A program made the position numbers and the translations under genes. Below are positions 22,501 through 53,862 of a stretch of DNA of 64,000 bases, one piece after another. The notes under the pieces were generated by a model that did no database searches, was not told the origin of the DNA, and saw only the letters and a program-made list of their open reading frames with translations. This stretch comes from Mogibacterium sp. (GTDB taxonomy: Bacteria; Bacillota; Clostridia; Peptostreptococcales; Anaerovoracaceae): positions 14,030 through 78,029 of the forward strand of contig JAFRLN010000034.1 of NCBI GenBank assembly GCA_017431175.1, in the 5' to 3' direction. Every line of letters starts with the position of its first letter. Position 1 is the stretch's first letter.

Positions 22501-25500
22501 CTGTCGTCCTGTCAAGCCCGAGTGTCACTATGTAGTTCCCTGATGTCTCGCTTGGATCGACCATCGGGATGAAGGAGAAGTCATAGCTGTTGCCTTCGCC
22601 TATGTCCACCTTGCCGGTATACTGCATCTGGTACTGATTCGGATCAGTGTTGTTCGCCTGGTATACCATCAGGGTGGCCTGCGTTCCGCTCAGGTCATTC
22701 TCAATATTGAGAGTGCCATCGATATGGATGGCCTTGCCGCTCAGATTCGTCGGCTCAGGCGGGTTCTCTATCTGATCGCTGTATCTGTACTCCGTCTGCT
22801 CCTCTATCTGTCTGTTGCTGTTTGCTGCTACCTCCGTTTCACTGTATTTCCAGTTGTTGTCCCAGCTTGTATATCTGTATCTTGTTTTCGTTACCTTCTG
22901 ACGGTGCAGATCGTTCTTTACATTCTGATCCCACAGATAGGTCTGTGCCCAGGACGCGCTCGTCGTAAAGGATGATTCGATCTTGCCGTTCCAGAACATC
23001 GTCCGGATGGTCCCGTCCGGTGTTGCCGTTATTGTCTTTGCGAATATCCCTGCTCCCCGGTCTGTTGTTCCAGAAGGGGTGTAGCTGCTTGTTGTGTATA
23101 CGACAAGGCTGTTGCTGTTCTTGGATTTACACTCTGTACATGTGACTGTATCTTTTTCGTTGCGCGCTACACGTTTACAGTCACAGTAATACGCGCGCCA
23201 CTTCTTGGCATTTTTATACGTGTCCTCTGTGACCGTTGTCGTATATACGTCATCTTCGGTCGTTGATGTCTCGGCGTTCTTTATGAACCAGCGGCCGTAG
23301 GTCGTGCTGACTGTCTCCGCTACGCCCTTTATTCCGTTGACCGTCGGATGCCCGCTGTACGTAACGACCTTGTCACGGTACTTGTATGTCGTTCTCGTCT
23401 CTACATGTCTGCCCGGCTTTTCCTCCGGTCTCTCAGTACTCCACTTGCTCGGTTCTGTCCAGCTTGTATTCTGGGATATCTCCTTTGTGAACAGGGCAGA
23501 ATATGTGCCGCCTGTGCTGCCGTCCGCTTTTCTCTCTACTGCTACCAGCTCGAGCTTTGTTACTGCGTTTGCTGCTGCTGAATCACTGACCGCAAGATCC
23601 AGATCATGGTCATTTGCTCCTGCGTTCAGCACCAGCCCGCTTTCTCCGGCAGGGATCTCGAAGCTCCTTCTGTCTGTGTACAGGGTCTTCTCGATCCCCG
23701 TAGCTGCGTCTGTTCCCTTGAGGGACGCTATGAGGTAGAAGCGCAGCGTCTCGTCAGCGTTCTTTTCCAGAACGACGTTCTGCGGTCTGAATACCGTTCC
23801 TTCCCCGTCGCTGCGAGTGACTTCCACAGTCTCCACGGATTCTATCTCTACCGGCAGCTCTGTGTTCTCCCATGTGACGATCGCCTTGATGTCCATATCT
23901 GAATCGACATGCTCGACATCTGCTGCGCTCTCAGGCTTGCTTGTCTTGATCACCGACCAGCCCTGCAGTTTCCTGCCCGGCGTCACATAGCCTTCCTCCT
24001 CCAGCATGTCTGTCACTGCCTGAGTGACGGCGCTTTCTCCATGCCTTACTTCTCTTGTAGTGAGCAGTTTGTCATCCGGCGCGTATATCCTTACTCTGTA
24101 TGTGTCTCCTTTGTATCTCGCCTCATAGTCGGTGTCGGTCGTTATTTTTTCACTTGTATAGTCTGTCGGCGATACTTTGCCGCTGTTTCTGTTCTCCCAT
24201 CCGCGGAACGTATATCCCGGTCTGGATGGTTCCTGCACTGCTTCAGGCGAGTCTCCGTACTTCACTTTAAGTTCTGTAAGAACCTTCTCTTCGCCCGTTT
24301 CGCCCGTTTCTATGAATCTGACCGTCAGAGGATCCACTGCTCTTACTTCCGCGCGTTCCGCTGATGTGCTCTCGCCCTGGCCGTTCTTTGCCGTTACTTC
24401 AACATAGTACAGGCCTGCCTCTGTCAGTCTGAACTTCGCCGTGTTCTCTGTCGTCTCCAGAGAATCCTGCTCCATATATCCGCCGTTATATGTCTCCTTA
24501 TACAGCATGACGGTATAGCTCTCCGCGGACTTGTCTTTGCTCCAGCTGAACGCTGCTGTCTCGCCCGTTGCTATCGTTTTGTCTGTATTGAGCAGCCTGA
24601 CTGTAGGCTCTTCCGGCTCGCCAAGATCCGCCTCCGCTTCTGCAGTTGTGCTTCTGACCGACCCGTCTCTTCTCGCGTATGCCCTGATCACTGCGCCGTT
24701 CGCTCCCTTGAAAGGCGCTTTGTACAGTACGTACTCGCCTCCGTTGACTGAGTACTTGATCGTGTCTCCGCTTGCTCCCGTGATGATGACTGTTCCGTCG
24801 GATGAGATGTTGATCTCAGGCGGAATGCACTGTTTGACTTTGATCCTCTTTTCCGCGTTCGGGCTCCGCTTCCCGTCGCCCGTTTTCGCGTACGCGACTA
24901 TTTTGTGTCCTTCTTCGGAGACGCTCGTCAGCGGGATCGTCTTGCTTGTTTCTGTATATCCCTTCCCGTTGATGTACAGTGTGCCGCCAGCGTTGTTCGT
25001 TACTACTGCGTATTTTCCTTCCTTCCCGGAGCTCTCTTTGTAGCTTCCCTCCGTGATCGTCGGCGCTGCTACTCCCGGATCGCTGACCACGACCTGCGCT
25101 GTGGCTGTCTTCTTCTGTCCTGCGGTATCCACCGCTGTGATAGAGATCGTCCACGTTCCGGCTCCTCTGTCGCCCAGGTTCAGCGCTTTGACCTGATCCT
25201 TGTCTGACGACACCGTTATGTTGCGGAAGATGAAGTTCTTGTATGGCATCGTCTTCTCGATCACTGTCGGCGTGATGACCCCGTTCTTTCTCGTATTTGG
25301 GTTCTCCGCGCGGATCGTTATGGACTTGACCGGATTGTGTGATACTACCTTTCCGGTTATATATCTCTTCGTTCCCCGCGTCACCGGCTTCCTGGCTTTT
25401 TCGTCCAGCGTCACTGTGATGTTCGATGTGCTCTTATTGCTGTCGTACTGGTTCACATACGACGCCTTCACATACCCGATGTTTCCCTTGCTGTCCTTCA

Positions 25501-26386: not shown

Positions 26387-26466
26387 AGTCTGCTCCATTT
26401 AAAAAGCGTAAATTACTTTGGCACTTTTAAGCGCTTGTAGCTATCTTGTATATCAGAAATTAAACC

Positions 26467-26496
26467 TTGCTAACATGCTCCCGCTCATACTACAAT
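26467..26496 (+). promoter_or_regulatory. Promoter candidate TTGCTA-18 bp-TACAAT for the GT2 gene at 26519
   Basis: Hexamers read at 26467-26472 and 26491-26496. GAGGTG RBS precedes the ATG. Confidence 0.4.
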
Positions 26497-26518
26497 TAGG
26501 TAATTGTGAGGTGAAGCA

Positions 26519-27511
26519 ATGAATTATTCAATAGTCATACCATGTTACAGATCATCGCATACCATCAGAAGCGTTGTCGAAGAGACGATTGCTGAGATGG
26601 ACCGTCTCGGCAGGGACGGATACGAGTTCATCCTTGTCGACGATTTCTCGCCTGATGACGGCGAGACCGTCCGCGAGCTGCAGGCTCTGGCGGATCAGTA
26701 TTCATGTGTTACAGCAATAGCCCTGGCGCACAATGTAGGTCAACATAACGCTCTCATCTGCGGGCTCAATTACGCGTCCGGGAACATCATCATTTTCATG
26801 GATGATGACATGCAGACCCACCCGTCGCAGCTCGACAAGATCATCAACGGTCTTGATGAAGACCACGATGTAGTATACGGGTATTATCCGGATAAGAAGC
26901 ATTCAGGCTTCCGTAATTTCGGGTCCTGGTTCACTCATATGAGCGTACGCATCCTCATCGGCAAGCCGAAAGACATGAAAACTTCGAGTTATGTCGCGAT
27001 GAAGAAGTATGTCCGTGACAGTATCATCAAATATCCTGCTCACTACACTCAAATGCAGGGACTGATCCTGCGTACCGTATCCCCGGCACGTATCGCGAGT
27101 GTACCTATCCAGCATTTTGACAGAGCATACGGTGAGTCAGGCTATACACTGAAGAAACTTCTGAGTCTCTGGTCCAACATCGCTGGCTTCTCCATCGTCC
27201 CGCTCCGTTTCGCCCAGAGGTTCGGTGTATTTACAACTCTGTGCGGAGTTCTCGGTCTGATATGGCTGCTGGTACGCAAGCTCATCAGCAAGACCAAGAT
27301 CCTCGGCTGGACATCCACAATGATGACCATCATCATCTTCTCCGGCATCATACTTATCACGCTTGGTGTAGTCGGTGAGTACGTCGGACGGATGTTCCTG
27401 ACGATGGGCAACTACCCGCAATACGTAGTCCGTGAAGTATATGGAAACAACATTGACTGCGAATCAAAATCAGAGAACAAAAAAAGTAGAAACGTCGCTC
27501 AAGAAGAGTAA
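26519..27511 (+). CDS. Polyprenyl-phosphate glycosyltransferase, GT2 (GtrB/ArnC/CsbB-like), third and most divergent paralogue
   Basis: 330 aa. MNYSIVIPCYRS..., VDDFSPDDG, FMDDDMQTHPSQ, two C-terminal TM helices and VVGEYVGR. Confidence 0.85.
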   Translation: MNYSIVIPCYRSSHTIRSVVEETIAEMDRLGRDGYEFILVDDFSPDDGETVRELQALADQYSCVTAIALAHNVGQHNALICGLNYASGNIIIFMDDDMQTHPSQLDKIINGLDEDHDVVYGYYPDKKHSGFRNFGSWFTHMSVRILIGKPKDMKTSSYVAMKKYVRDSIIKYPAHYTQMQGLILRTVSPARIASVPIQHFDRAYGESGYTLKKLLSLWSNIAGFSIVPLRFAQRFGVFTTLCGVLGLIWLLVRKLISKTKILGWTSTMMTIIIFSGIILITLGVVGEYVGRMFLTMGNYPQYVVREVYGNNIDCESKSENKKSRNVAQEE

Positions 27512-27558
27512 GTCTCTGCCTTAAAACTGCCAATTCGAGGAAAAACTATTTATCAGGA

Positions 27559-27586
27559 AACCGGAAATCGTTCTCCGGTTTTTAAT
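27559..27586 (+). terminator. Rho-independent terminator
   Basis: AACCGGA-(8 nt)-TCCGGTT followed by TTTTAATTT. Confidence 0.65.
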
Positions 27587-27666
27587 TTGCAATAATAAGA
27601 ATAAGAATTACTACCCCGGTTATACTATTAATCTCCCCCATAGCCCTTTTTGTTATTCTTGACACA

Positions 27667-27858
27667 CTAGTCAAAAATCTTTATTTCTGAGAGTCTTACT
27701 CCGAACAGGTCTGCCACTGCGATCACTTTTCCAACTGCAACTCGCGAGATGTCTTTTTCCCAGGCATTGTATGTCTGAACTGATATGCCAAGCTTCTCAG
27801 CGGTCTCACGCTGAGTCCAGTTTTTACGGGCTCTCAGTTCCTTGAGCGAATACTGCAT
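27667..27858 (-). CDS. Small XRE/Cro-type helix-turn-helix regulator
   Basis: The track ORF starts at a GTG (27867). The ATG at 27858 gives MQYSLKELRARKNWTQRETAEKLGISVQTYNAWEKD..., a classic HTH_3 pattern, 63 aa. Confidence 0.85.
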   Translation of the reverse strand: MQYSLKELRARKNWTQRETAEKLGISVQTYNAWEKDISRVAVGKVIAVADLFGVRLSEIKIFD

Positions 27859-27882
27859 CAAGCACACACCTCCTCGTGTCTG

Positions 27883-27911
27883 ATTATACTTGAATATAAA
27901 TCAAGTAGCAA
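27883..27911 (-). promoter_or_regulatory. Strong promoter candidate TTGCTA-17 bp-TATAAT driving the Cro-like gene
   Basis: On the minus strand, -35 at 27911-27906 and -10 at 27888-27883. Operator-like site O1 lies entirely in the spacer. Confidence 0.55.
27890..27904. promoter_or_regulatory. Operator-like inverted repeat O1: TTGA-ATATAAA-TCAA
   Basis: Read directly. One of three TTGA-N7-TCAA sites in the 224-bp divergent spacer. Confidence 0.55.
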
Positions 27912-27919
27912 TTGCTAAT

Positions 27920-27934
27920 TTGACCTGAATTCAA
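27920..27934. promoter_or_regulatory. Operator-like inverted repeat O2: TTGA-CCTGAAT-TCAA
   Basis: Read directly. Centre is 30 bp from O1. Confidence 0.55.
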
Positions 27935-27961
27935 CCATGTGCGATTAATATTCGTATACGC

Positions 27962-27976
27962 TTGATAATTATTCAA
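27962..27976. promoter_or_regulatory. Operator-like inverted repeat O3: TTGA-TAATTAT-TCAA
   Basis: Read directly. Centre is 42 bp from O2. Overlaps the -35 of the plus-strand promoter candidate. Confidence 0.55.
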
Positions 27977-27990
27977 CAATCTTGTATTAT
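27962..27990 (+). promoter_or_regulatory. Promoter candidate TTGATA-17 bp-TATTAT for the CI/LexA-like gene
   Basis: Hexamers read at 27962-27967 and 27985-27990. This would give a leader of about 95 nt. Confidence 0.4.
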
Positions 27991-28091
27991 TGGGGTACTA
28001 TTTGTCGTATTGCTTCATTTCTATGCTTATATGCAGTATTCTCTGTATGATTTGTATTCTTAATATTGATAAGTTTTGAGGTTCGGTTAAG

Positions 28092-28730
28092 ATGCACTTC
28101 ATTGCCAGCAACATCAGATATCTGAGAAAACGCGACGGTTATTCGCAGCAAGCTTTGGCCAATTTGCTAGGATATCATTCCGACAAATCATTCACTACAG
28201 TCCAGAAATGGGAGTCCGGAGTATCGACGCCGCCGCTCGTCGTTTTCTTGCGTTTAGCAGAGATTTTCAAGGTCGATCTTGATACACTGGCATATCAGAA
28301 CATGGCAGACCCATCCAGCAGAATAGAATATAATAAATCATCTTCTATAGTTCCGGTTTATAGAAGTCTCTCGAACGATGATTCGGCTGATAAGTATCAA
28401 GACATTGAGGGATTTGTAGATATCGATTCTAAGGATCTGGATGCAGACAAAAGCTATTTTGCTCTAAGGGTCACAGACGCTTCAATGCATCCAAAGTATG
28501 AAAAAGATGACATAGTACTCTTCGAGAAGCAGGATGCATATAGCACCGGATCTGATTGCGTGGTAAGAATAGGTGATAATGATGCTACGTTTATGAAGGT
28601 TCGCAATAATAGGGATCACATTCTTCTTCAGCCTATCAACCCGGATTTCGAACCAGTTCTGATCAGCAACGATGGAAGCTTCTCAATCAAGATTCTTGGT
28701 GTTGCCAGAGAAATAAGAAGGAAGGTATAG
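28092..28730 (+). CDS. CI/LexA-like repressor: N-terminal XRE HTH + C-terminal S24 peptidase domain
   Basis: 212 aa. HTH: IRYLRKRDGYSQQALANLLGY...VQKWESG. S24-like: YFALRVTDASMHPKYEKDDIVLFEKQ...ATFMKVR...ILLQPINPDF (Ser in DASM, Lys in FMKV). Confidence 0.8.
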   Translation: MHFIASNIRYLRKRDGYSQQALANLLGYHSDKSFTTVQKWESGVSTPPLVVFLRLAEIFKVDLDTLAYQNMADPSSRIEYNKSSSIVPVYRSLSNDDSADKYQDIEGFVDIDSKDLDADKSYFALRVTDASMHPKYEKDDIVLFEKQDAYSTGSDCVVRIGDNDATFMKVRNNRDHILLQPINPDFEPVLISNDGSFSIKILGVAREIRRKV

Positions 28731-28775
28731 CCAGAAATTAGCGGCTTATCTTATCTTGAGTTTAATTCTCGCAAG

Positions 28776-28812
28776 CAAAACGGGGTCTGTTTACTGCAGA
28801 TCCCGTTTTATA
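28776..28812. terminator. Bidirectional rho-independent terminator between convergent genes
   Basis: AACGGGGTCTG-(7 nt)-CAGATCCCGTT stem (one G-T pair), flanked by AAAA and TTTTATAT. Confidence 0.7.
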
Positions 28813-28838
28813 TCTATCTATCACACTGACTGTGATTC

Positions 28839-29774
28839 CTATTCACATTTCAGGCTTCTCACCTCTGTCATCGCTTCTTCCATATCTTCCGGATATATGC
28901 CCAGCGCCTGATTCAGGAGTTCGGTGCTCATCCACGATGGCCTTATCGTCTCTTCCTTAGAGTCGTCATAATCGATCGGGGTGCCGTTTTCGAATACCCT
29001 GTTGACGATCTGCGCGATCTCCAGATTGGTGTATGCATGAGGCATGCCTGCGTTGACGGTGATGTTCTCACCGGCGCTGAGATGCTCATTGCCGCACGCA
29101 AGCGCGGCGAGGATCTTCGCGAGATCTTTCACATAGAGGTACTGGCGCTTTACGACGCTCCTGCCGATGACGCGGAGCTGTCCGCCGGCAGCGGCCGTAT
29201 CGATGAAGACATTCATCATCGCGCGCCTCTTCTCTCCGAGGCCCAGCACCTGGGCGATCCTCGCGATCCCGTATGTGACGCCGCATTCATCAGCGTATCT
29301 GCGTATCAGCTGCTCGCATCTGATCTTGGAGTCCCCGTATGCAGTACGCCCTTTGAGCGGAGTGTCTTCTGTCCACGGGATCAGCGATTCGTCATCGTAG
29401 ACTGAGATCGTCGACGCGAAAACGATCCTCTTCACTCCGGCTGTTACCATTGCCCTGAGGATGTTCTCAGTCATCTCTTCATTGATCACATAGTCTGCCG
29501 GATCCGGCGTCGTTCCTCTGACTCCCGCCAGATGCACCAGGACATCAACGCCCTCGAGGACCTCTGCCAGAGACGCCTCTGTGTAATCTGTCGCTTTCCA
29601 CTGCACGGCCGGGCAGGATGCCTCTGCATCAGGGATCTTCCCGCTGCCGGCAGTCTCTTCTTCCGATGCGCGGCCGCCTCTTGTAAGGCCGACTATAGAA
29701 TTGTCTGTTTTCTTCAGTAGGCTGAGCAGCTCAGTTCCGATGAACCCGCTCGCTCCTGTGATTGCTATTTTCAT
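28839..29774 (-). CDS. NAD-dependent sugar epimerase/dehydratase/reductase (extended SDR)
   Basis: The track ORF extends to 29861. The ATG at 29774 overlaps the MATE stop (ATGA) and gives MKIAITGASGFIGTELL (GxxGxxG). YGDSK is the YxxxK motif. Confidence 0.8.
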   Translation of the reverse strand: MKIAITGASGFIGTELLSLLKKTDNSIVGLTRGGRASEEETAGSGKIPDAEASCPAVQWKATDYTEASLAEVLEGVDVLVHLAGVRGTTPDPADYVINEEMTENILRAMVTAGVKRIVFASTISVYDDESLIPWTEDTPLKGRTAYGDSKIRCEQLIRRYADECGVTYGIARIAQVLGLGEKRRAMMNVFIDTAAAGGQLRVIGRSVVKRQYLYVKDLAKILAALACGNEHLSAGENITVNAGMPHAYTNLEIAQIVNRVFENGTPIDYDDSKEETIRPSWMSTELLNQALGIYPEDMEEAMTEVRSLKCE

Positions 29775-31162
29775 TTTGCGCTCCCCTGCATTATCAGAGA
29801 TTTCTGCTTCCAGCGGCCTCTCTGGTATACGGCTACTGTCATCGCCGATCCCATGAGCCACGCGATCAGCATCGATACGAACATCATGTAGAACTGTCCG
29901 TGCGGATTCTCAGGCGACCTTGTCATCCATGTCATCAGGTAAGCCAGCGGGACACGGATCGCTACTGTTGTGATCATGGACAGCCACATCGGCGCCATCG
30001 TATCTCCGGCGCCTCTCATGATGCCCTGCAGGCACTGCGTGACTTCCATCGCGATATAACCGACACCCATGATCAGCATCATGTGATAGCTCTGTTCGAT
30101 CAGCGCGTCCGTGTTGGTGAAGAGAGCCATCAGGTACTTGCCGAAGATGAATATGAGTACTGTGATGACAGCAGAGGTCGCCATAGCGACTCCGGTGCCT
30201 TTTTTCGCTCCTGTCTCTACCCTGTCGATCCTGCCGGCACCGATATTCTGCCCCGCGAAAGTGGTCATGGCCGCTCCGAATGAGAATGCCGGCATCATGA
30301 CGAATCCGTCGATCCTCATTACGATTACGTTGGTGGCTATGCACATAGGCCCGAAGCTGTTGGTGAGCGACTGCACGACTACCATGGAGAGAGAGAATAT
30401 CGCCTGTGTTATGCCTGAAGGAAGTCCGAGACGCACCAGTTCCCTGACATACTTGCTCCCGGGTTTCAGATAGGCCGCCTTCAGATCAAAGACGTCCTTC
30501 TTTCTCGCCAGCTTGATGAAAGACAGCACCGCCGAGAAGCTCTGCGCGATGACGGTCGCAAGAGCAACTCCCGGGACTCCCATCCCGACCTTCGCTACGA
30601 AGAAAATATCGAGCACGATATTAAGGATCGTCGCGACCACAAGGTACATAAGAGCGGAGATCGAATCTCCGAGACCTCTGAGCACTCCCCCGAGGATGTT
30701 GTAAAACGCGCATCCCGCTATTCCGAGGAACAGGATCCTGAGATAGTCATCGCACCAGTTTAAGATCTCATCCGGCGTATTGAGAAGTCTCAGCAGCGGC
30801 ATCGTAACCAGCGGGGCTATGATCATAACGATCACAGACGCAAGAAAAGTCATCGTAATGCAGCATCCGATCGATTTGGACAGATGATTCCTCTGCTTTG
30901 CGCCGAAATACTGCGATACCATGATCCCTGCTCCTACTGAGATACCCATGAAAAGTACCAGCAGAAGATTGACGATAGGCCCCGCGCTTCCTACAGACGC
31001 AAGGGCATTATCGCCTATGTATTTGCCTACCACGATGCTGTCGACAGTATTATAAAGCTGCTGGAATACATTTCCGATCAGCATCGGTATCATGAATTTT
31101 ACGATCTGCCGCACCGGGTCCCCGACCGTCATGTCGACAGGTTCAAATATCTTCTTCCACAT
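29771..31162 (-). CDS. MATE-family (MOP superfamily) transporter
   Basis: 463 aa with 12 TM segments. N-terminus ...IVKFMIPMLIGNVFQQLYNTVDSIVVGKYIGDNALASVG is typical MATE. The substrate (drug or lipid-linked glycan) is not determinable. Confidence 0.8.
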   Translation of the reverse strand: MWKKIFEPVDMTVGDPVRQIVKFMIPMLIGNVFQQLYNTVDSIVVGKYIGDNALASVGSAGPIVNLLLVLFMGISVGAGIMVSQYFGAKQRNHLSKSIGCCITMTFLASVIVMIIAPLVTMPLLRLLNTPDEILNWCDDYLRILFLGIAGCAFYNILGGVLRGLGDSISALMYLVVATILNIVLDIFFVAKVGMGVPGVALATVIAQSFSAVLSFIKLARKKDVFDLKAAYLKPGSKYVRELVRLGLPSGITQAIFSLSMVVVQSLTNSFGPMCIATNVIVMRIDGFVMMPAFSFGAAMTTFAGQNIGAGRIDRVETGAKKGTGVAMATSAVITVLIFIFGKYLMALFTNTDALIEQSYHMMLIMGVGYIAMEVTQCLQGIMRGAGDTMAPMWLSMITTVAIRVPLAYLMTWMTRSPENPHGQFYMMFVSMLIAWLMGSAMTVAVYQRGRWKQKSLIMQGSAK

Positions 31163-31189
31163 CTCCAGTCACTTCCATTTTTGAAAATA

Positions 31190-31222
31190 AGAAAAGGTCA
31201 GGACATCGTTCCCGGCCTTTTC
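31190..31222 (-). terminator. Imperfect hairpin + U-rich tract between the adenylating-enzyme and MATE genes (possible intra-operon attenuator)
   Basis: Minus-strand AAGGCCGGG-(8 nt)-CCTGACCTT (one mismatch, one G-U pair) followed by TTCTTATTTTC. Confidence 0.35.
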
Positions 31223-31233
31223 CGCGTTGCTGT

Positions 31234-32541
31234 TTACTGGACATTGCAGACAAAACATCTCTGCTTGCCAGTCTTCTCCGGAGGCAGTTCGTCGAGCCAC
31301 TCTATAGTAATCTTAAACTCATCGCCGTAGAGCTTGGTCACCTCTGTGATGAATCTCTCTTCGATCTGCTCCTTAGTCATCGACTTGTTGAACGGATCCG
31401 CTACCAGCTGGATCTTCATGTCGTGATAAGTCTCTTCGATGAACCTGAACTGCGAGAGTCCGACTGTGTGGTTCGCTATCCTCATCAGCTGGAGCGCGGA
31501 TGAATCCGCTCCGCCCTCATGCTTGACGAGGTCGTTCATGCGGCCTTCGATGTCCGTGAAGTACCTGATGCCGTCCTTCACGAATGACTTGCCGAGGTCG
31601 AGTGTCTCATAGTTGATCAGCGGATAAGTGTGCTTGTACAGAGAAGTCACGACAATGCGTCCGTCATCGGCAAGCTCGTTCTTGTCGTTGTAGACATTAG
31701 CGACTGCGATGTCGTTGGCGACATATCTGTAGCCTACACCCGGGAACTCATAGATAAAGCTTCCCATCTCGGATACTCCGTACGCGTCGATCAGTCCAGG
31801 TCCGAGCGCCTTCGCAAGCATCTTGCGTGTTACTTCATCGACCATCTCGCTTATAGGCGCGTAGAGCTTCGGCTTCCATATTTCAAGGTTGTGTGACTCG
31901 GCATAAGCGACCATTCTGACCATGACGTTGCGCCTGAGGCAGATGAGGTCCGGCTTATACTCGTTGATGTCCTTGATCAGATCGGCGATTCCGTCGCCGA
32001 CTATGTGGTCTTCTCCGACAACTTTACGTCTCATCAGTCCGAACTTCTGGATGATGGAGTCTCTGTTTTTCTTCCTCGGTCCCTTGTGGCTTGTCGAGAA
32101 TGAATACATCTTGCCGAAAAGCGGCTTGTAGCCTGCTGCCGACAGTGCTCTTGCCCAGTTGGCATCACTGCAGGCCTGCTCTTTCTGGGTGTAGAGCATC
32201 TTAAGCGGTGTGCCGGAAGATCCGCTCGTGCTGAGGATGTTGACATCATCATGGATCTCAGGATGATCATCCCACTCAGTCTGCATCCACAGACGAAGTT
32301 CAGGCTTGGTTAGAGTAGGGAATTTTACGAGATCCTCAGCGCTGTGATAGTCATCAGGAGTCGTACCCGACTGCTCGAACTTCTCTCTGTATACAGGGAT
32401 CTTGTAAGCTCTCTGCATCAGCCGGTAGATCTTCCTGTTCTGGTCCGCCTTGATCTTCTTCGGATCACCGTCGAGCGATCTTCTCAGCGTCAGCAGATAC
32501 CATACCGTATAAGCATTTTTGAGTTTTTTCTGAATACCCAT
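31234..32541 (-). CDS. Adenylate-forming enzyme, phenylacetate-CoA ligase / CapK / F390-synthetase-like
   Basis: 435 aa. ...FPTLTKPELR..., P-loop-like ILSTSGSSGTPLKM, and overall PaaK-like length and layout. Confidence 0.65.
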   Translation of the reverse strand: MGIQKKLKNAYTVWYLLTLRRSLDGDPKKIKADQNRKIYRLMQRAYKIPVYREKFEQSGTTPDDYHSAEDLVKFPTLTKPELRLWMQTEWDDHPEIHDDVNILSTSGSSGTPLKMLYTQKEQACSDANWARALSAAGYKPLFGKMYSFSTSHKGPRKKNRDSIIQKFGLMRRKVVGEDHIVGDGIADLIKDINEYKPDLICLRRNVMVRMVAYAESHNLEIWKPKLYAPISEMVDEVTRKMLAKALGPGLIDAYGVSEMGSFIYEFPGVGYRYVANDIAVANVYNDKNELADDGRIVVTSLYKHTYPLINYETLDLGKSFVKDGIRYFTDIEGRMNDLVKHEGGADSSALQLMRIANHTVGLSQFRFIEETYHDMKIQLVADPFNKSMTKEQIEERFITEVTKLYGDEFKITIEWLDELPPEKTGKQRCFVCNVQ

Positions 32542-32556
32542 GTTATCTGACCTCCG

Positions 32557-33699
32557 TTATTTTACAGTTCTTCCTGTCCTGCGGATCACATATCCGCACT
32601 TCTCTATATATCCGTTGATCCTGAGCACTCTGTCGCCGTCATCGTAATAGTAGCAGACATGCTCAGCGCCTTCCGTATCGAACTCGCCGCGCGCAAAACG
32701 CGTATTCGGCTCTTTGCTCATGAACGCCAAGCTGTACTCTTCCGCAGGCATCTCATACTTCCCGTCCAGGACAGAGGCACCCTCAAGCAGATGCCTGAAG
32801 CACGCGTCCAGAAGATCCGCGCCGCAATAATGTCTGATCAGGTTCCACATGTGGCAGCCGTCAAGTCTCGGTGTGACTTCAAGCAGTACAGGATCAGTGC
32901 CGTTCCTGAGTTTGATCTGGAAATACGCCGGTCCGTCGGTGATCCCGATCCTTGATGCCACGCGGGCAGCAAGGTCTTCACACTTCATCTTCGCCTCTGC
33001 GTCAGCAAAAGACGAAGGGACCCGGTGCTCTTTGATGATCCCGCCGGGATACTCGTCGAACGCGTATCTGTCGCTGACGAGAGCGAACTTCAGCGCTCCG
33101 TCCTGCATATACGCGTTGACCGATACCTCCGGCCCGTCGATGAATTCTTCAACGATGACCTTGCCTTCGAACGAATAACCGAGAGAAGCCGCGAAGTGCT
33201 CTCTGATATCGTCCGCGGACTCCACCTTAAAGCATCCTCTCTGGCCCTGCGAGTCGACAGGTTTCATCATACCCGGGAAGTCCGTATACTCAAGAGCTTC
33301 TTCGAGGGTGCGCGCGGTTATGAATGACGCGTTGCCTTCAAAGCCCTGTCCGAGAGCCTCTCTCAGCTTGCCCTTGGAATGGCAGGTCTCTGCAGTTTCA
33401 TACGAAATAAAATGTGGCAGACCGAGCATCTCGCTGACCTTCATGACGGTCGGCATAGCAAGATCAGAGCCGACGGAATAGATCGCCCGCACTCCGTATC
33501 TTCGCGCGAGGTCTGCGACGCCCTCCATACTCTTGATATCGACCTGTTCGAAATAGTCAAGATGCGGAATGCCGCAGTCTACAGTCGTGTAGCTGCATCC
33601 GACGACCTTGTAACCATGCGCCTTGCAGTATTCGATCGCGTCGATCTGCGCGTTGCCGGCGCCGAGTATGAGGATTCTTTTTTCTTCGTTCATTTTCAT
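32557..33699 (-). CDS. ATP-grasp family ligase (third copy)
   Basis: 380 aa. KRILILGAGNAQIDAIEYCKAHG, FPGMMKPVDSQGQRGCFKV, VIVEEFIDGPEVSVNAY, PVLLEVTPRLDG. The start overlaps the upstream stop (ATGA). Confidence 0.8.
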   Translation of the reverse strand: MKMNEEKRILILGAGNAQIDAIEYCKAHGYKVVGCSYTTVDCGIPHLDYFEQVDIKSMEGVADLARRYGVRAIYSVGSDLAMPTVMKVSEMLGLPHFISYETAETCHSKGKLREALGQGFEGNASFITARTLEEALEYTDFPGMMKPVDSQGQRGCFKVESADDIREHFAASLGYSFEGKVIVEEFIDGPEVSVNAYMQDGALKFALVSDRYAFDEYPGGIIKEHRVPSSFADAEAKMKCEDLAARVASRIGITDGPAYFQIKLRNGTDPVLLEVTPRLDGCHMWNLIRHYCGADLLDACFRHLLEGASVLDGKYEMPAEEYSLAFMSKEPNTRFARGEFDTEGAEHVCYYYDDGDRVLRINGYIEKCGYVIRRTGRTVK

Positions 33700-34859
33700 G
33701 GAGTCACCGTTTCCAGTTCTGTTATAGTCCTGAGCGTATCGCTCAGATCGTGATCTACTTCTTCATGCGGCTTGTCGGCATGAGCGGAAGTGTAATCTTC
33801 ATAGCATTTGTAGAATTTCAGGATCAGTTCCGCGCTGTCTTCCCACTTGGCGCGGTTTTTCTCTGTCTGGGTCCGCGGCTGAATGCCGTATTTCTCTTTG
33901 ATGGTCTTGCCGAGATATGAGGAAAGCTTGCGCTGGCCGGTCGCGACCATGTGATGCGTATCGAAGAAGTCCTCATAATACTCGAGTCCGATCTTGTCTA
34001 TCTCCTTAGTGAAGTCAATGACGTCAAAGCCTTCTCCTCTGATGATCTCTGCCGCCTGATTGAATCTCTGATGTCTTGTATATCCCTTCTCGTTTCCGAT
34101 GATGTGCGGGAACTCGGCGAAAACGATATGCGGTATCTCCGATTCTTTGCACGCTTCGAGGAATTCCCTGAGTTCCGCTTCCCCGTCAGCGTTGAGCGGG
34201 GCTGTAGTATCGTCCGCCGGGAGGATGTTGTCCGCGTCGAACTCCGTATGGTAGAGCGGAGTCATCGCGCCGCGGAGTCTCAGATATCCGTTTCTGTACA
34301 TCAGCATCCTGTCCCTGACAGAGTCATCTCTCAGCTCCGTCCATCTGTAGTGATACTTGATCACCGGGAAGATGCTTTCCAGCGGGTGCTGCGCCATCTC
34401 GCGGGCAAAACGGATCCCGTTCCCCGAGATCGGCAGGTTGTCGCCGAGGAGCCTGACACAGTCTTCCGAGTGGATCATGGAGTCCTCTTCATAGAGAGCT
34501 CCGTTCAGTTCAATGACAAGTACCTGCGGGTGCTGCGTCCGTTCGATCTCTGCCAGCTCGTACTTCCACAGTGGTACAGAGTTCACGGCAAAGCAGTACG
34601 GGTAGCTTGTGTATCCGTGCTCCCGGTACATTTCCGGCGCGCAGTAATCGTTCATGATCTCGCTCGCGCCCATGACAACAATGTCCAGCGAATCCGGCTC
34701 TTCAAGATAGAACCCCTGCAGCAGCACCGACTCGCTGCTTCCGTCATTGGCGAACAGCAGCTGCGACACATAGCAGATCCCCGTTATGACCGCGATGAAA
34801 AGCGCGATGCCGAGTATTCTTTTGGTATATTTCTTTTTTCCGGTAGTTTTCTCTGTCAT
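33696..34859 (-). CDS. Membrane-anchored SGNH/DltD/AlgJ-like (divergent DHHW-family) protein, partner of the MBOAT
   Basis: 387 aa with an N-terminal TM. VVMGASEI (nucleophile-like Ser). FFDTHHMVATGQRKLSSYL parallels FFNTDHHWKPSTALWAAGV in the 42040..43221 product. Confidence 0.6.
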   Translation of the reverse strand: MTEKTTGKKKYTKRILGIALFIAVITGICYVSQLLFANDGSSESVLLQGFYLEEPDSLDIVVMGASEIMNDYCAPEMYREHGYTSYPYCFAVNSVPLWKYELAEIERTQHPQVLVIELNGALYEEDSMIHSEDCVRLLGDNLPISGNGIRFAREMAQHPLESIFPVIKYHYRWTELRDDSVRDRMLMYRNGYLRLRGAMTPLYHTEFDADNILPADDTTAPLNADGEAELREFLEACKESEIPHIVFAEFPHIIGNEKGYTRHQRFNQAAEIIRGEGFDVIDFTKEIDKIGLEYYEDFFDTHHMVATGQRKLSSYLGKTIKEKYGIQPRTQTEKNRAKWEDSAELILKFYKCYEDYTSAHADKPHEEVDHDLSDTLRTITELETVTP

Positions 34860-36472
34860 CAGAATCCCATATATACGAAATCGACACCTTCAGATCCTGA
34901 CCCGTACATGCCCAGCATGATGACAGACAGCGCGCCGATCAGAAGGATCACCCACTGAAGCCACGCAGGTCTGCGGTCAAGGAGGTCACCCGGAGTCTCA
35001 AGGCCGGACCTCTCCAGTCTGATGCTGAAATACAGAATCACCAGCGCGCCGTACACGACGACCGCCATATCGCTCATCCTGAGATCAAGATCGTGTATCT
35101 GGCTTGTTGTTACCATGTGAAAGTCCGCGACCGAGCGCCACATCATATCGAAGGCACCCCTGAGGTCGGGAGCTATGTCGAAATAGTAACCAATCAGAAC
35201 GACCACGAAAGTCCTGAGCATCTGGAAGAGCTTCCATCCCCATGCCTCTGCCTTGATGTGCAGAGCATTCAGCGCTTTCTCATAGGCCGGAGCCATGAGT
35301 GTGGAGAACATGATCACAAGTCCGTTCCACAGACCGAATCCTATGTACCTGCTGTTCGCTCCGTGCCAGATACCGATCAGCAGGAAGACGATCAGTGAAG
35401 CGAAAGCGGTCGGAAGCGTTCTGGAGATATGCTTCCCCGCGGCAGTCTTGCCGAAAGCAGTGCCGGCAAGGCGTTTGCTGATATTCAGGAAGAGATTCGA
35501 GACAGCAAGCGAATAGAAGACGTATTTCTTCATCCAGGCGCCGAGCGTGATATGCCATCTGCGCCAGTACTCATTGATGGATCTTGAGAAATACGGCTGT
35601 CTGAAGTTGTTCTCAAGGTCGATGCCGATCACTCTCGCAACGCCTCTCGCTACATCGATGCCTCCGGAGAAGTCCGCGTACAGCTGCAGAGCGTACATGA
35701 GCGCGGCAAAAAGTATCATCCCGCCCTGATAGGAGGCATAGTCGCCCGCGACGGTATTGATCGCCGCGAACAGCCTGTCAGCTATCACGAGCTTCTTGAA
35801 CAGGCCCCACAGGATGAGCTCTCCGCCTGACTTGAATCTGTGCCACTCCGGCCGGTGCTCTTCATACAGCTGTGATCCAAGCTGGTCGAAAGCGCTGATC
35901 GGTCCCTGTATGATCTGCGGGAAGAATGAAACGAACAGAGCGAATCTGAACAGATTCTTCTCTGCCCGGACTGTTCCTCTGAACACATCTATCAGGTATC
36001 CTGTTGCCTGGAATGTGTAGAAAGAGATGCCGAGCGGCAGGAGCAGGCTTATGATCTTAGCGTCTCCCGACGAGTGTCCCAGGAGATGCATCAGCCCGCC
36101 GGCCAGGAAGTTCAGATACTTGATCACGAACAGGATGCCGAAATTGGTCAGCAGCGCCGCGGCGAGGATCCTCTTCTTACTCTTCTCGGCGCCTTGTTTG
36201 TACGCCTTCTTCTCTTCAGAGCTCCACACACCCTTCATCGACTTGACTTTCTGTTTTGTCTCTGCGGACACCTTGTCTATACAGACTGCCGCGTAATATA
36301 TCGTCAGAGTCGTAAACAGGATGAAGACTGTATATTTATAGCTGTTGTACACATAGAAAAAATAGCTCGCGAAAAGCAGCACCGTCCACTGATACTTCTT
36401 CAGCGGAAACAGAAAATATATGATGATTGTGATGCCTGCGAACAGTGCAAATAACAGCGATGTGAAAGTCAT
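34859..36472 (-). CDS. Membrane-bound O-acyltransferase (MBOAT; AlgI/DltB/PatA-like)
   Basis: 537 aa, polytopic. ISFYTFQATGYLIDVFRG, FFPQIIQGPI, YWRRWHITLGAWMKKYVFY, GIWHGAN (conserved His). Confidence 0.85.
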   Translation of the reverse strand: MTFTSLLFALFAGITIIIYFLFPLKKYQWTVLLFASYFFYVYNSYKYTVFILFTTLTIYYAAVCIDKVSAETKQKVKSMKGVWSSEEKKAYKQGAEKSKKRILAAALLTNFGILFVIKYLNFLAGGLMHLLGHSSGDAKIISLLLPLGISFYTFQATGYLIDVFRGTVRAEKNLFRFALFVSFFPQIIQGPISAFDQLGSQLYEEHRPEWHRFKSGGELILWGLFKKLVIADRLFAAINTVAGDYASYQGGMILFAALMYALQLYADFSGGIDVARGVARVIGIDLENNFRQPYFSRSINEYWRRWHITLGAWMKKYVFYSLAVSNLFLNISKRLAGTAFGKTAAGKHISRTLPTAFASLIVFLLIGIWHGANSRYIGFGLWNGLVIMFSTLMAPAYEKALNALHIKAEAWGWKLFQMLRTFVVVLIGYYFDIAPDLRGAFDMMWRSVADFHMVTTSQIHDLDLRMSDMAVVVYGALVILYFSIRLERSGLETPGDLLDRRPAWLQWVILLIGALSVIMLGMYGSGSEGVDFVYMGF

Positions 36473-36494: not shown

Positions 36495-36830
36495 CTATAT
36501 CGTATAGATCAGAACGCCCGCGATAATCAGCAGGTTGCCGATCAGCTGTCCTCTGTTGAAATGCTCCTTAAGAAGCACGAACGACAGCACCATTACGAAA
36601 ACGTATGTAAAAGTATCGATCACCGGACCGAATCTCATGTCTACCTTGGTGTAGGCATATGTGTTGACGAAGAGCACGCCGAAAGAGATCGCGTAAGCGG
36701 TCAGTACTCTCCAGTTCAGGTATTCATAGATCCAGGACTTGTGCTCCATCCTGGCACTCTGCTTGAGCAGTATCTGGGATCCCGCGGAGAAGAAAGTCGC
36801 CGCGAACAGAAGGAAAATGTAGAAATTCAT
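36495..36830 (-). CDS. Small 4-TM DMT/EamA-type protein, ArnE/ArnF-like flippase subunit (cassette B, subunit 2)
   Basis: The track ORF extends to 37085, but the ATG at 36830 overlaps the upstream stop (ATGA) and gives a 111-aa protein colinear with 17549..17884 (67/111 identical). Confidence 0.65.
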   Translation of the reverse strand: MNFYIFLLFAATFFSAGSQILLKQSARMEHKSWIYEYLNWRVLTAYAISFGVLFVNTYAYTKVDMRFGPVIDTFTYVFVMVLSFVLLKEHFNRGQLIGNLLIIAGVLIYTI

Positions 36831-37201
36831 TCCGCCGCCTCCTCTCCGTACGGGGTGTTGAGAGAGACGGTAACGACTCCCGCAAGCACTACCGCAAGTC
36901 CGACGAGGTTCTTGGCTGTCAGGTGCTCTCCGAATAAAAGCACAGCCCAAAGCTGTCCCCATATGAGATAGACGCTCCTGTTGGCGTATCCCACATGAAG
37001 ATCTACTTTCTTGATTACCTTCTGCCAGAAAAACGCGTATACTACGCAGACCATCAGCATCAGCATTGAGAATATATACAGCCATGGACTGTAGAATCCC
37101 GCGCTGTTATATGTGTTGGCCGCTGCCTTGGCGAAAACGCTGGTGAAGGAGAACACCATTACGCAGAGGTGGAGACGCAGATAATCACCTAATCTCTCCA
37201 T
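36827..37201 (-). CDS. Small 4-TM DMT/EamA-type protein, ArnE/ArnF-like flippase subunit (cassette B, subunit 1)
   Basis: 124 aa with 4 hydrophobic segments. Paralogue of 17889..18269. Confidence 0.65.
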   Translation of the reverse strand: MERLGDYLRLHLCVMVFSFTSVFAKAAANTYNSAGFYSPWLYIFSMLMLMVCVVYAFFWQKVIKKVDLHVGYANRSVYLIWGQLWAVLLFGEHLTAKNLVGLAVVLAGVVTVSLNTPYGEEAAE

Positions 37202-38400
37202 AATTCCTCCAGTGTCCTTCCATCAACGAACATAGCACTGTATACACGATCCTTGATCCTGTCAAATTCATCCTCATCATCGACAGCCGCGATGACATGT
37301 CCGATTCTCGTCGTACCGTTGTACATCTTCTCGATGCTGTCTCCGACACCGTAGTCGAGCTTGACTGTGATGCCTTCTCCGCGGATGGCATCGAGCTTCT
37401 CCTCGTCTATATAAGAGATCGTGCCGTCAACCGGACTCATGAGGAGCTTTGCCATGCATGGCACTCTGACGTCGCCCTCCGGCATCACGACCGGTCTTCC
37501 GAGCGCGTTGTTGATCATCTGCTCGTAGAAGTCGAAGCCGTAGTAAATGGATATCAGTTCCGGTATGCAGGTCGCTCCGGCGCGGCCTCCCATCTCGATG
37601 ATATAGACTTCATCCCCGTCAACGAAGACGTCTGAATTGAATGCCGTGTTATCGATCCCGAGGGAGCGTGTCGCGAGCGTGATCTGCTTCGCGATCTCAT
37701 CATACACTTTGTCTGAGCACTTATACGGGAACGCGTGTCCCGCAGGCATAGTGGCACCTCTGAACTTGTAGGTGAACTTCTCATGAGGGGCAAGGAGGAT
37801 CAGTTCACCATTCTCCACCATTCCGTCAACGCCGATCTCATGACCGCCGAGCTTGCTCTCGATGAGAACATAGTCTTTGCGGGAATATCTGACCGCTTCC
37901 TCATATGCCGTTTTCATCTCGTCACGGGTGTCGATGACATTGATGCCGCGGCTGCCGGAGCTGTCTACGCATTTTACGACGACAGGATATCCGATCTGTT
38001 CTGCGGCGGCATACGCCTCCTCAAGGGATGTGACGCGGACATATCTCGACGCAGCGACGTTGCCTTCAGCGAAAGCTTCTTTCATCTGAAACTTGTCGCA
38101 CGCCTTATCCGCCGCGATCTCGCTGATACCGGACAGCCCCATCTGGTCGTTGACATAACCGATCGTCGCGACAGCGACATCCGTCCCTGAGGTGCAGATC
38201 CCGTTGACGCCTTCCTTGCGGCAGATCTCCAGGATAGCTTCCTTGTCTACTGTATTGATGTAGTATGCCTTATCGGCATAATCAAAACCGGGATATGCTC
38301 CCGGCATACTTGATACTATAGTATAGAGACCCATACGCTTGGCCGTTTTGATCAGCGGTACCTGATATACGCTGGCGCCAAGTATCATGATCTTGTCCAT
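37189..38400 (-). CDS. ATP-grasp family ligase (cassette B)
   Basis: The track ORF starts at 38448 inside the upstream gene. The ATG at 38400 (GAGAGG RBS) gives MDKIMILGASVYQVPLIKTAKRMG. YPVVVKCVDSSGSRGINVI, YVLIESKLGGHEIGVDG, VYIIEMGGRAGA. Confidence 0.8.
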   Translation of the reverse strand: MDKIMILGASVYQVPLIKTAKRMGLYTIVSSMPGAYPGFDYADKAYYINTVDKEAILEICRKEGVNGICTSGTDVAVATIGYVNDQMGLSGISEIAADKACDKFQMKEAFAEGNVAASRYVRVTSLEEAYAAAEQIGYPVVVKCVDSSGSRGINVIDTRDEMKTAYEEAVRYSRKDYVLIESKLGGHEIGVDGMVENGELILLAPHEKFTYKFRGATMPAGHAFPYKCSDKVYDEIAKQITLATRSLGIDNTAFNSDVFVDGDEVYIIEMGGRAGATCIPELISIYYGFDFYEQMINNALGRPVVMPEGDVRVPCMAKLLMSPVDGTISYIDEEKLDAIRGEGITVKLDYGVGDSIEKMYNGTTRIGHVIAAVDDEDEFDRIKDRVYSAMFVDGRTLEELWRD

Positions 38401-38404
38401 AAAA

Positions 38405-39340
38405 CTACCTCTCAGATTCATTGATGCCAACAGTATCTCTGATGACATATTGCGGTGTTTTGTTAAGTATTAGTATTATCTTGCCCAGATACTCCCCTAC
38501 GATTCCGAGTACCATCAGCACAACTCCGAACAGCAGTGTTATGACGCACATCGTGGATGACCATCCTACAGGGAGGTTCGGATATATGATCTTGTTGATA
38601 ATGATCAGTATTGTGAATACCAGTCCGGCTATGAATGAGAAGATGCCGACGAAGAAGGATATCCTCAGCGGTATCACGGAGAAGTTCCAGTACGCCATCC
38701 ACAGCTTGAGAAGCTTCTTGAATGTGTAGCCGGAATGTCCGTATTCTCTCTTGAAGTGCTCGACCGGAACCATTCCGATATTATTGGTCACTCTGTAGAA
38801 CACGGCATCGACATAAGGATTGAACGTATCGAACTTGATCACCTCATCTCTGACAGACTTCGTAATGATCCAGAAGTTGCTGGACTCTATCTCCTTAGGT
38901 CTGCTGAGCATTACTCTGGAGGTCTTTCTGTTGATGATGCTGGTCAGATTTTTGATCGGTCCGTTCTTGACTTCCGGATAGATCCCGTATACAAGGTCAT
39001 AGCCTTCTTCGATCTTGTGGATGAGCTTGAAGATCTGCGACGGATGCGTCTGCATATCGTCATCCATTCCCAGGATATAGTCGCCCTTCGTATAGTTCAG
39101 CGCTGCCATGATCGCGTTATGCTGGCCGAAGTTCCTCATCAGGTTGACTCCGCGGACGTTAGGGTATTTCCTGTTCAGCGCGACGATTTCATTGAAAGTG
39201 CCGTCTGTTGAGCCGTCATTGACCAGGACGAATTCGCATTCATATCCTTCGTTGTTATTAAATTCTTCTGTAACCATGTCGACGACCTTGCCAATCGTCT
39301 TCTCAGAGTAGTAACATGGTATTATTATTGATATAAGCAT
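38405..39340 (-). CDS. Polyprenyl-phosphate glycosyltransferase, GT2 (GtrB/ArnC/CsbB-like) (cassette B)
   Basis: 311 aa with AAGGAG RBS. 73 of the first 100 residues are identical to the cassette A GT2 (hand count). NDGSTDGT, MDDDMQTHPSQ, C-terminal TM pair and IVGEYLGK. Confidence 0.85.
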   Translation of the reverse strand: MLISIIIPCYYSEKTIGKVVDMVTEEFNNNEGYECEFVLVNDGSTDGTFNEIVALNRKYPNVRGVNLMRNFGQHNAIMAALNYTKGDYILGMDDDMQTHPSQIFKLIHKIEEGYDLVYGIYPEVKNGPIKNLTSIINRKTSRVMLSRPKEIESSNFWIITKSVRDEVIKFDTFNPYVDAVFYRVTNNIGMVPVEHFKREYGHSGYTFKKLLKLWMAYWNFSVIPLRISFFVGIFSFIAGLVFTILIIINKIIYPNLPVGWSSTMCVITLLFGVVLMVLGIVGEYLGKIILILNKTPQYVIRDTVGINESER

Positions 39341-43221: not shown

Positions 43222-43230
43222 GATCCCCTC

Positions 43231-44655: not shown

Positions 44656-44711
44656 CCCAGTCTCCCGGTTAAGGCCGATCACGAAAATTGTCCGATAGTT
44701 TAATCTGCAAC

Positions 44712-53846: not shown

Positions 53847-53862
53847 CTGTGTATTCTGACTC

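Follow-up and report, generated by a model that had tools for sequence, protein, structure and literature searches.

Organization of the six-gene locus

The subject of this analysis is a run of six minus-strand genes at positions 28839–36472 of a stretch of DNA from Mogibacterium sp. (the window, by which we mean the whole 64-kb stretch analysed), in which a membrane-bound O-acyltransferase (MBOAT), with an SGNH-fold partner, stands next to two ligases, a transporter and a short-chain dehydrogenase/reductase (SDR). The run begins with the MBOAT (34859–36472; 537 aa; Pfam PF03062, E = 9e-14) and continues with the membrane-anchored SGNH-fold partner (33696–34859; 387 aa), recognised from an AlphaFold (AF2) model, a Foldseek comparison and its invariant residues. 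These are followed by an ATP-grasp carboxylate-amine ligase of the L-amino-acid-ligase (LAL) type, here termed ATPgrasp3 (32557–33699; Pfam ATP-grasp_4, 4e-9), and a CapK/PaaK-subfamily adenylate-forming enzyme, here CapK (31234–32541; 435 aa; TIGR02155, 1e-17, below the cutoff of that model). The last two genes encode a MATE-family transporter of the MOP superfamily (29771–31162; 463 aa; MatE, 5e-64; TIGR00797) and an extended SDR (28839–29774; Pfam Epimerase, 5e-36) with GASGFIG and YGDSK motifs. A preliminary description of this DNA had placed six open reading frames (ORFs) at these positions, which we confirmed, and its family calls for the MBOAT, ATP-grasp, PaaK-like, MATE and SDR proteins were upheld by Pfam and NCBIfam searches.

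The genes are closely packed. The MBOAT and partner genes overlap by one nucleotide at 34859, the partner and ATPgrasp3 genes share an ATGA at 33696–33699, and the MATE and SDR genes share another at 29771–29774; these overlaps had been proposed before, and the last holds only if the SDR starts at the ATG at 29774, its longest ORF beginning at a GTG at 29861. A gap of 15 nt separates ATPgrasp3 from CapK. The largest gap, described earlier as about 70 nt with a hairpin, is the 71-nt interval between CapK and MATE (31163–31233, minus strand); its folding gives a hairpin and then a U tract (−25.1 kcal/mol, z = −2.5), a possible attenuator or partial terminator. Upstream, only 22 nt lie between the stop of a small EamA-like gene (36495) and the MBOAT start (36472), so the six genes extend a ten-gene run that starts with a family 2 glycosyltransferase (GT2) at 39340. 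The four upstream genes of this transcription unit, termed cassette B (36495–39340, minus strand), encode the GT2, another ATP-grasp enzyme and two SMR/EamA halves. Homologous loci, designated by L numbers, were found in rumen metagenome-assembled genomes (MAGs) of Anaerovoracaceae/Mogibacterium. The ten-gene order recurs in MAG RUG13158 (L010) and in part in RUG321 (L014), and is therefore not an artefact of assembly.

The MBOAT–partner pair and the donor genes of its relatives

The MBOAT belongs to a subfamily of 530–550 aa proteins and scores 132 bits against the DltB equivalog model TIGR04091, short of the cutoff of 375. Its histidines His307 and His370 lie in RWH and WHGA motifs, and its C-terminus, FVYMGF (residues 532–537, including Tyr534), matches the FxYxxF 'acyl shuttle' motif, which is C-terminal in PatA-type MBOATs and is supplied to DltB by DltX (PMC12148441). 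PatA-type MBOATs with this fused motif use a CoA thioester as donor (PMC12148441). The combination of an invariant histidine with a C-terminal FxYxxF sequence is that of PatA/PatB-type systems.

Searches of Pfam, NCBIfam and PDB with the partner gave no sequence match. Its AF2 model (pLDDT 92.8) consists of an N-terminal transmembrane (TM) helix and an alpha/beta domain, and Foldseek ranked DltD first (6pfx; E = 4.6e-4, with a TM-score of only 0.35), then PatB and other SGNH proteins; SGNH proteins make up most of the list, with TM-scores that are low (0.35). Residues invariant in an alignment of 19 homologues are Ser66 (in GASE), Asn119-Gly120 and Asp297/Asp300-x-x-His303. The fold, together with Ser66, Asp300 and His303, bears out the SGNH-like character proposed for this protein in the preliminary description, but the reading of its FFDTHHM sequence as a variant of the DHHW motif is unsupported at the sequence level. 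Model and alignment together fit a neighbouring protein of SGNH fold that lies outside the cytoplasm and has a Ser-Asp-His triad, as the partner does in PatA/PatB-type systems. A profile search gave the partner family a size of 7186 representative clusters, which no Pfam or NCBIfam model covers, and a genome scan with the partner profile, limited by its pattern-based seeding, gave only 11 loci. Sequence-based attempts to assign the partner to DltD, ALGX or DHHW gave no Pfam or NCBIfam match to these families, whether with the window protein or with ten distant members of its own family, and fold comparison alone was successful.

The pair resembles the Dlt system of teichoic-acid D-alanylation (DltA, DltC, DltB, DltX and DltD) in joining an MBOAT to a membrane-anchored SGNH protein whose best structural match is DltD, in its FxYxxF shuttle chemistry, in its teichoic-acid-type setting and in the DltA-like adenylase and DltC-like carrier encoded beside its relatives. 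It differs in that the window lacks DltA, DltC and DltX, the shuttle is fused to the MBOAT instead of residing on a microprotein, the MBOAT falls below the DltB cutoff, the partner has no DltD Pfam match, and the BtrK-like decarboxylase of the relatives has no Dlt counterpart. The window pair is not a Dlt system; its architecture is PatA/PatB-like and fits the structural definition of that type. With PatA/PatB, AlgI/AlgJ/AlgX and WssH/WssI it shares an MBOAT that is extended at the C-terminus by two additional helices and ends in FxYxxF, and it has the separate extracytoplasmic partner with a Ser-Asp-His triad and, in the window, no carrier gene nearby. Unlike in these acetyl-CoA-dependent systems, genes for an adenylase and a carrier are linked to the orthologues of the window MBOAT, the partner lacks an ALGX or PatB-type signature, and a true AlgI/ALGX-type pair lies separately, 6 kb upstream. 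This second, conventional MBOAT (483 aa, ending in FIYFNF) and its ALGX-type SGNH partner occupy 42040–44682 and are probably the ordinary O-acetyltransferase of the locus.

In the relatives, MBOAT–partner pairs with 55–75% identity to those of the window adjoin genes for an adenylating enzyme, a carrier and a pyridoxal phosphate (PLP) enzyme (L006, L007/8, L009, L011, L013, L015, L017 and L044). The adenylating enzyme (504–546 aa) is of the non-ribosomal peptide synthetase (NRPS)/DltA-like type (TIGR01733, 1e-88; DltA models, ~1e-75; PDB DltA, 5e-54) and also matches TIGR03098. The carrier has 75–77 aa, a conserved (D/E)SFD serine and a match to the DltC model (1e-7). The best solved homologue of the PLP decarboxylase is BtrK (1e-31), the glutamyl-S-acyl carrier protein (ACP) decarboxylase, and the enzyme also matches the 'exosortase A-associated' decarboxylase model TIGR03099. 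More distant MBOATs (38–40% identity; L004, L030, L031, L054, L057 and L065) are likewise carrier-linked. These donor genes recall two known sets. As in butirosin biosynthesis (BtrI, an ACP; BtrJ, an ATP-grasp enzyme; BtrK, the decarboxylase), the PLP enzyme is closest to BtrK and a LAL-type ATP-grasp is encoded nearby, and as in the exosortase A-associated ligase/ACP/decarboxylase trio (TIGR03098, TIGR03099), the adenylase and PLP enzyme match with a small carrier between them. The differences are that carrier, adenylase and decarboxylase are not in the window, that aminoglycoside genes are absent, and that the product in the relatives goes to an MBOAT instead of a BtrH-type transferase.

The complete five-gene set of adenylase, carrier, BtrK-like decarboxylase, MBOAT with FxYxxF end and SGNH partner occupies L007:10001-15832, L009:6893-12777, L006:3287-12781, L013:212-6078 and L015:5395-11167. 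This Dlt/PatAB hybrid may serve to decorate wall polymers with a decarboxylated (omega-amino) acyl group; we found no paper on such a set, or on systems of an MBOAT with a BtrK-like enzyme, in the searchable literature. Carrier–MBOAT pairs without an SGNH partner, and with no DltA-type gene in 21 kb, are present at L004:19255-21096, L030:12769-14640 and L031:16053-17943. Their MBOATs are 39–40% identical to that of the window, and they adjoin the ATP-grasp/CapK/SDR triad described below and YfhO or TagF genes.

None of these donor genes was detected in the window. Searches by tblastn with five carriers gave zero matches in the 64 kb, and hidden Markov models (HMMs) of the carrier (13 sequences), the adenylase (from 11 relatives) and the PLP enzyme gave no match below E = 0.4 among window ORFs of at least 35 aa. 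The sole adenylating enzyme encoded in the window is the PaaK-type protein, and neither the DltA-type adenylase nor the DltC-type carrier of a Dlt system is found there. The lack of a carrier gene noted earlier for the six-gene run thus extends to the entire window, where it probably reflects gene location or recent loss and not mechanism. Donor genes were likewise not seen within 10 kb of the MBOAT in L012, L016 and L019.

In sequence, the window MBOAT resembles its carrier-linked orthologues. It retains 172 of the 174 alignment columns that are invariant among eight of these, whereas, of the 100 such columns that stay invariant when the carrier-linked group with 38–40% identity is included, the AlgI-type MBOAT of the window deviates at 39. 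The window clade, made up of the window, L010 and L014, lies nested among carrier-linked MBOATs in a neighbour-joining tree. Given that almost all sister lineages are carrier-linked and that the invariant positions are retained, the lineage looks ancestrally carrier-dependent and unlike that of a plain O-acetyltransferase, and the window copy shows no sign, at the level of its sequence, of a functional shift. MBOATs without adjacent donor genes are polyphyletic in the tree (window clade, L012, L016 and L019); a single clade of such MBOATs, or altered conserved positions common to them, was looked for in the tree and in the invariant columns, and neither was found. The only recurring change in donor-less MBOATs concerns Tyr164 of the D-V-Y-R-G motif, which is invariant in all carrier-linked MBOATs. 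Phe takes its place in the window, L010 and L014, as does His in L019. Adjacent donor genes are absent from each of the four, but Tyr164 is kept in L012, L016 and L020.

The ATP-grasp/CapK/SDR triad and its surroundings

CapK carries the motifs STSGSSGTPLK (A3), YGVSE (A5), GRMNDLVKHEG (A8) and GK426 (A10, with Lys426), which are invariant in 12 homologues. All motifs of the ANL superfamily are therefore kept in this enzyme, whose catalytic residues the preliminary description had proposed to verify by alignment. Against the PaaK equivalog model TIGR02155 it scores 63.5 bits, where the cutoff is 646; PaaK1 is matched in PDB at 1e-10, and Foldseek with the AF2 model gave PaaK1/2 (2e-21, TM-score 0.58–0.65). 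The homologues carry the domain PF27533 (CapK_C), and motifs and fold together place the protein in the CapK_C-bearing part of the PaaK subfamily. It shares with PaaK, HCL, NatL2, AjiA1 and ClxA the fold, the adenylation motifs and a length of ~435 aa, but differs from PaaK in its ~20% identity, in a score far under the PaaK cutoff and in the distinct CapK_C domain with its invariant RCFxC. Because this subfamily mixes CoA ligases (PaaK, HCL) with enzymes that form esters or amides directly (NatL2, AjiA1, ClxA), the acceptor of CapK cannot be read from homology. The C-terminal RCFxC (residues 429 and 432) and His341 and His373, all invariant in the CapK family, have no counterpart in PaaK and could be a metal site or contain a reactive cysteine. 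Literature searches on CapK function and on systems of ATP-grasp with YfhO gave nothing relevant; the gene called 'capK' in a paper on B. cereus is Wzz-like and unrelated.

CapK is the middle member of a triad. The first gene, ATPgrasp3, has its PDB matches in L-amino acid ligase 3vot (3e-11) and also BacD. The third, the SDR, matches the UDP-GlcNAc 4-epimerase 3m2p (5e-36) and resembles a nucleotide-sugar 4-epimerase. The MATE protein scores 261 bits against TIGR00797, above the cutoff of 147, with a weak Polysacc_synt match (8e-9), and occupies the place at which relatives have a Polysacc_synt (Wzx-type) flippase beside CapK; this arrangement is confined to the window and L010.

Gene neighbourhoods were counted over a non-redundant set of 26 CapK loci, each flanked by 8 kb or more. 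An ArnC/GtrB-type GT2 lies within 10 kb of CapK in 21 of the 26 loci and a second, LAL-type ATP-grasp in 16. An MBOAT is found within 10 kb in ten loci, only three of these within 3 kb, and 16 of the 26 have none within 10 kb. CapK and MBOAT genes thus do co-occur elsewhere, and the preliminary description had named the opposite case, that they never do so, as a refutation of its proposal; in the ten loci with a nearby MBOAT, a carrier is present in seven and an NRPS/DltA-type adenylase in five. ATPgrasp3 adjoins CapK in 10 of the 14 loci in which CapK is at least 60% identical, and the triad is confined to these CapKs; it shares one operon with a GT2 and a second ATP-grasp in L004/5, L021, L025 and L028. 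More distant CapKs adjoin a Polysacc_synt flippase and a GT2–ATP-grasp–YfhO set (L001-3, L043-47, L053 and L058-61), and the flippase is beside CapK also in L054. CapK occurs alongside adenylase and carrier genes in L013, L015, L044, L057 and L065. Mutual exclusion of the triad and a DltA-type gene, as expected if one had replaced the other, was considered and rejected, both being present in L007/8, L013, L015 and L044.

Cassette B, upstream of the MBOAT in the window, contains the same partners, all on the minus strand. The ArnC/GtrB-type GT2 (38405–39340) matches ArnC in PDB (3e-33), and the search also gave a match to PgfS (5e-46). The LAL-type ATP-grasp, ATP-grasp2 (37189–38448), matches 4dim (1e-54), and the two 4-TM SMR/EamA half-transporters (36827–37201 and 36495–36830), which overlap at an ATGA, have a weak ArnE match (1.6e-4). 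In L006, L016, L053, L058 and L059 the cassette B block adjoins CapK or YfhO. Its resemblance to the Arn pathway suggests that an undecaprenyl-phosphate-linked sugar is modified by the ATP-grasp and then flipped. The likeness to CsbB/GtcA/YfhO and ArnC/ArnE-F/ArnT decoration systems lies in the ArnC/GtrB-type GT2, the small SMR/EamA or MOP flippases and the YfhO of the relatives, which accompany CapK and the ATP-grasps more constantly than any other genes; the known systems differ in having no ATP-grasp or CapK-type ligases. YfhO was not detected in the window by tblastn with three YfhO proteins, and the locus lacks a recognisable GT-C enzyme of the YfhO/ArnT type. Two polytopic membrane proteins without a Pfam match are encoded at 9171–11282 (~12 TM) and 11336–13093 (~10 TM), the former with 40% identity to a 686-aa protein of L007; each is a candidate for the missing GT-C-type transferase or for a polymerase.

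The window is collinear with L007/8 over genes for a GT4, an aminotransferase (82% identity), a dehydratase (92%), a PST flippase, a YkuD protein, a GT2 (82%), the SDR (57%), CapK (92%), ATPgrasp3 (80%), an Ig-like protein (60%) and ALGX (73%). L007 has the order MBOAT–partner–adenylase–carrier–decarboxylase in the interval from the GT2 to the SDR; at that site the window has only a gene for a LexA-like helix-turn-helix and S24 peptidase protein (28092–28730). The MBOAT–partner pair of the window, which is a different one, lies with cassette B on the opposite side of the triad. This comparison shows MBOAT sets being shuffled around the triad as a stable backbone, and since a 92%-identical CapK stands in L007/8 beside a donor arm that is self-sufficient, the task of CapK there is not the loading of the MBOAT. 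The stretch at 26400–28840, with the GT2 (26519–27511) and the LexA-like gene, is low in GC (0.44) and may be the scar of a deletion or replacement.

The window as a whole is a wall-polymer superlocus, with TagF-type glycerophosphotransferases, TagGH-like ABC-2 exporter genes, GT4, GT2 and GT8 glycosyltransferases, the second MBOAT with ALGX, three ATP-grasps and L,D-transpeptidase-like proteins. It further encodes a 2289-aa secreted protein (19529–26398), situated amid the wall-polymer genes, whose domains are of the CHAP, SH3, Listeria-Bacteroides repeat, Fn3 and chitobiase-C-like kinds, a MoxR-type AAA ATPase with a DUF58 protein amid the teichoic-acid genes (52707–54822) and a 719-aa protein with polysialyltransferase/GT52-like domains (56517–58676).

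A proposed pair of juxtaposed modules and the competing explanations

The preliminary description had combined the six genes into a single Dlt-like acylation module and offered two routes, neither of which fits in full. On balance, we favour reading them as parts of two wall-polymer decoration modules that lie side by side in one operon, with the donor genes of the first unlinked or lost. From the observed gene content, motifs, folds, neighbourhood statistics and synteny we infer the chemical steps and the identity of the donor as follows.

The first module would consist of the MBOAT and its SGNH partner and would act as a trans-membrane acyl relay, by analogy with the PatA/PatB and DltB/DltX/DltD mechanisms. 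A phosphopantetheine-bound thioester would reach the MBOAT from the cytoplasm, and His370 would shift the acyl group to Tyr534 of the fused FVYMGF shuttle, from which it would pass to Ser66 of the externally anchored partner and finally form an ester on a hydroxyl of the wall glycopolymer. Orthology points to an aminoacyl-S-carrier as the most likely donor, which would be made by the NRPS/DltA-like adenylase, the 75-aa carrier and the BtrK-like decarboxylase, the genes of which would in this lineage lie outside the window or have been lost.

The second module would comprise the ATP-grasp, CapK, SDR and MATE proteins and go with the upstream Arn-like cassette. The SDR would yield an epimerised nucleotide sugar and the ArnC-type GT2 would load the sugar onto undecaprenyl phosphate; ATPgrasp3 and CapK, working on the cytoplasmic side, would furnish it with carboxylate or amine substituents. 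Flipping of the product would fall to a MOP or SMR-type exporter, and its attachment to the polymer to a GT-C enzyme, YfhO in the relatives. The carrier-less appearance of the locus most probably reflects such shuffling of modules and not new chemistry.

Several observations weigh against this two-module arrangement. The site syntenic to the L007 donor genes is empty in the window, and adenylase, carrier and PLP genes are all missing from 64 kb of what appears to be the main wall-polymer locus, so that a real loss of the donor genes must be reckoned with. MBOAT sets of three sub-types lie beside the triad in at least six arrangements (window/L010/L014, L016, L030, L007, L013 and L015), which is more than a casual linkage, and in the window, L016 and L030 a single strand carries triad and MBOAT in tight packing. 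In addition, a carrier and an MBOAT lie near the triad in L004, L030 and L031, where 21 kb contain no DltA-type gene. To our knowledge no biochemical function has been described for any CapK-type enzyme, and the proposed role in sugar decoration therefore rests on gene context only.

Some of these points are accommodated by the route offered first in the preliminary description, in which the MBOAT receives an acyl group activated by a PaaK-type enzyme. ATPgrasp3 and CapK would then have replaced the adenylase–carrier–decarboxylase arm, CapK would make an (amino)acyl-CoA or load an unlinked carrier, the MBOAT would accept this product without further steps, much as PatA does with acetyl-CoA, and all six genes would form one pathway. 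In the window, L010 and L014 the triad sits downstream of the partner, where L007 has its adenylase, carrier and decarboxylase. L016 has a tight ATPgrasp3–CapK–SDR–MBOAT–partner run with donor genes absent within 10 kb, and in L004, L030 and L031 triad, carrier and MBOAT occur with a DltA-type gene absent. ATP-grasp enzymes are able to load carriers, as BtrJ does in butirosin biosynthesis. CapK retains every ANL motif and has the CoA ligases PaaK and HCL among its nearest structures. PatA-type MBOATs with the same fused motif accept a CoA thioester (PMC12148441). Co-occurrence and motifs thus do not speak against the route. Yet the CapK (92% identical) and the ATP-grasp (80%) of L007/8 coexist with a full adenylase–carrier–decarboxylase–MBOAT set, so that neither serves to load a donor there, and CapK coexists with adenylase and carrier in the five other loci named above; of the ten MBOATs near CapK, seven have a carrier and five an adenylase of their own. 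The linkage of CapK to the GT2 and the second ATP-grasp is tighter than that to the MBOAT, which 16 of the 26 loci lack within 10 kb. The SDR looks like a sugar-nucleotide epimerase and not like an enzyme of an acyl pathway, and the window MBOAT is unshifted in sequence from its carrier-linked orthologues. We consider this route unlikely. Its more specific form, in which the Anaerovoracaceae clade has lost the donor arm and the ATP-grasp and CapK send a non-acetyl acyl- or aminoacyl-CoA straight to the MBOAT, appears improbable to a similar degree; if true, it would amount to a carrier-protein-independent aminoacylation of wall polymers and would assign a first function to a CapK-type enzyme.

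The other route of the preliminary description, ordinary O-acetylation with acetyl-CoA from general metabolism in the style of PatA/PatB or AlgI/AlgJ and with the two ligases serving sugar decoration, agrees with two juxtaposed modules in the placement of the ligases and draws on the fused FxYxxF MBOAT with a separate SGNH protein and no DltX microprotein, on the absence of donor genes from the 64 kb and on their absence within 10 kb in L012 and L019, but as an account of the pair it is doubtful and somewhat less likely still, given that the 530–550 aa subfamily is carrier-linked throughout the tree, the nearest outgroups of the window clade among them, that 172 of 174 family-invariant positions are retained, and that the AlgI-type MBOAT and ALGX pair at 42040–44682 would already cover O-acetylation.

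The family of this pair also bears on how MBOAT systems are classified. MBOAT–SGNH pairs are now divided into the Dlt type, with a carrier-bound donor and a separate DltX shuttle, and the PatAB/AlgIJ type, with acetyl-CoA as donor and a fused shuttle. The family described here has a fused shuttle, which most of the relatives combine with a donor arm of DltA/DltC-like type and with a BtrK-like decarboxylase; it is thus a third, undescribed configuration, which probably places an aminoacyl group other than D-alanine on Gram-positive wall polymers. The copy in the window is an edge case, in which the conserved pair persists and the donor genes are missing from the locus, and it turns the question of what feeds a bacterial MBOAT into a testable one. 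For the CapK-type ligases, common annotations in glycan loci to which no function is attached, the association with an ArnC-type GT2, ATP-grasp ligases and flippases likewise provides a testable context.

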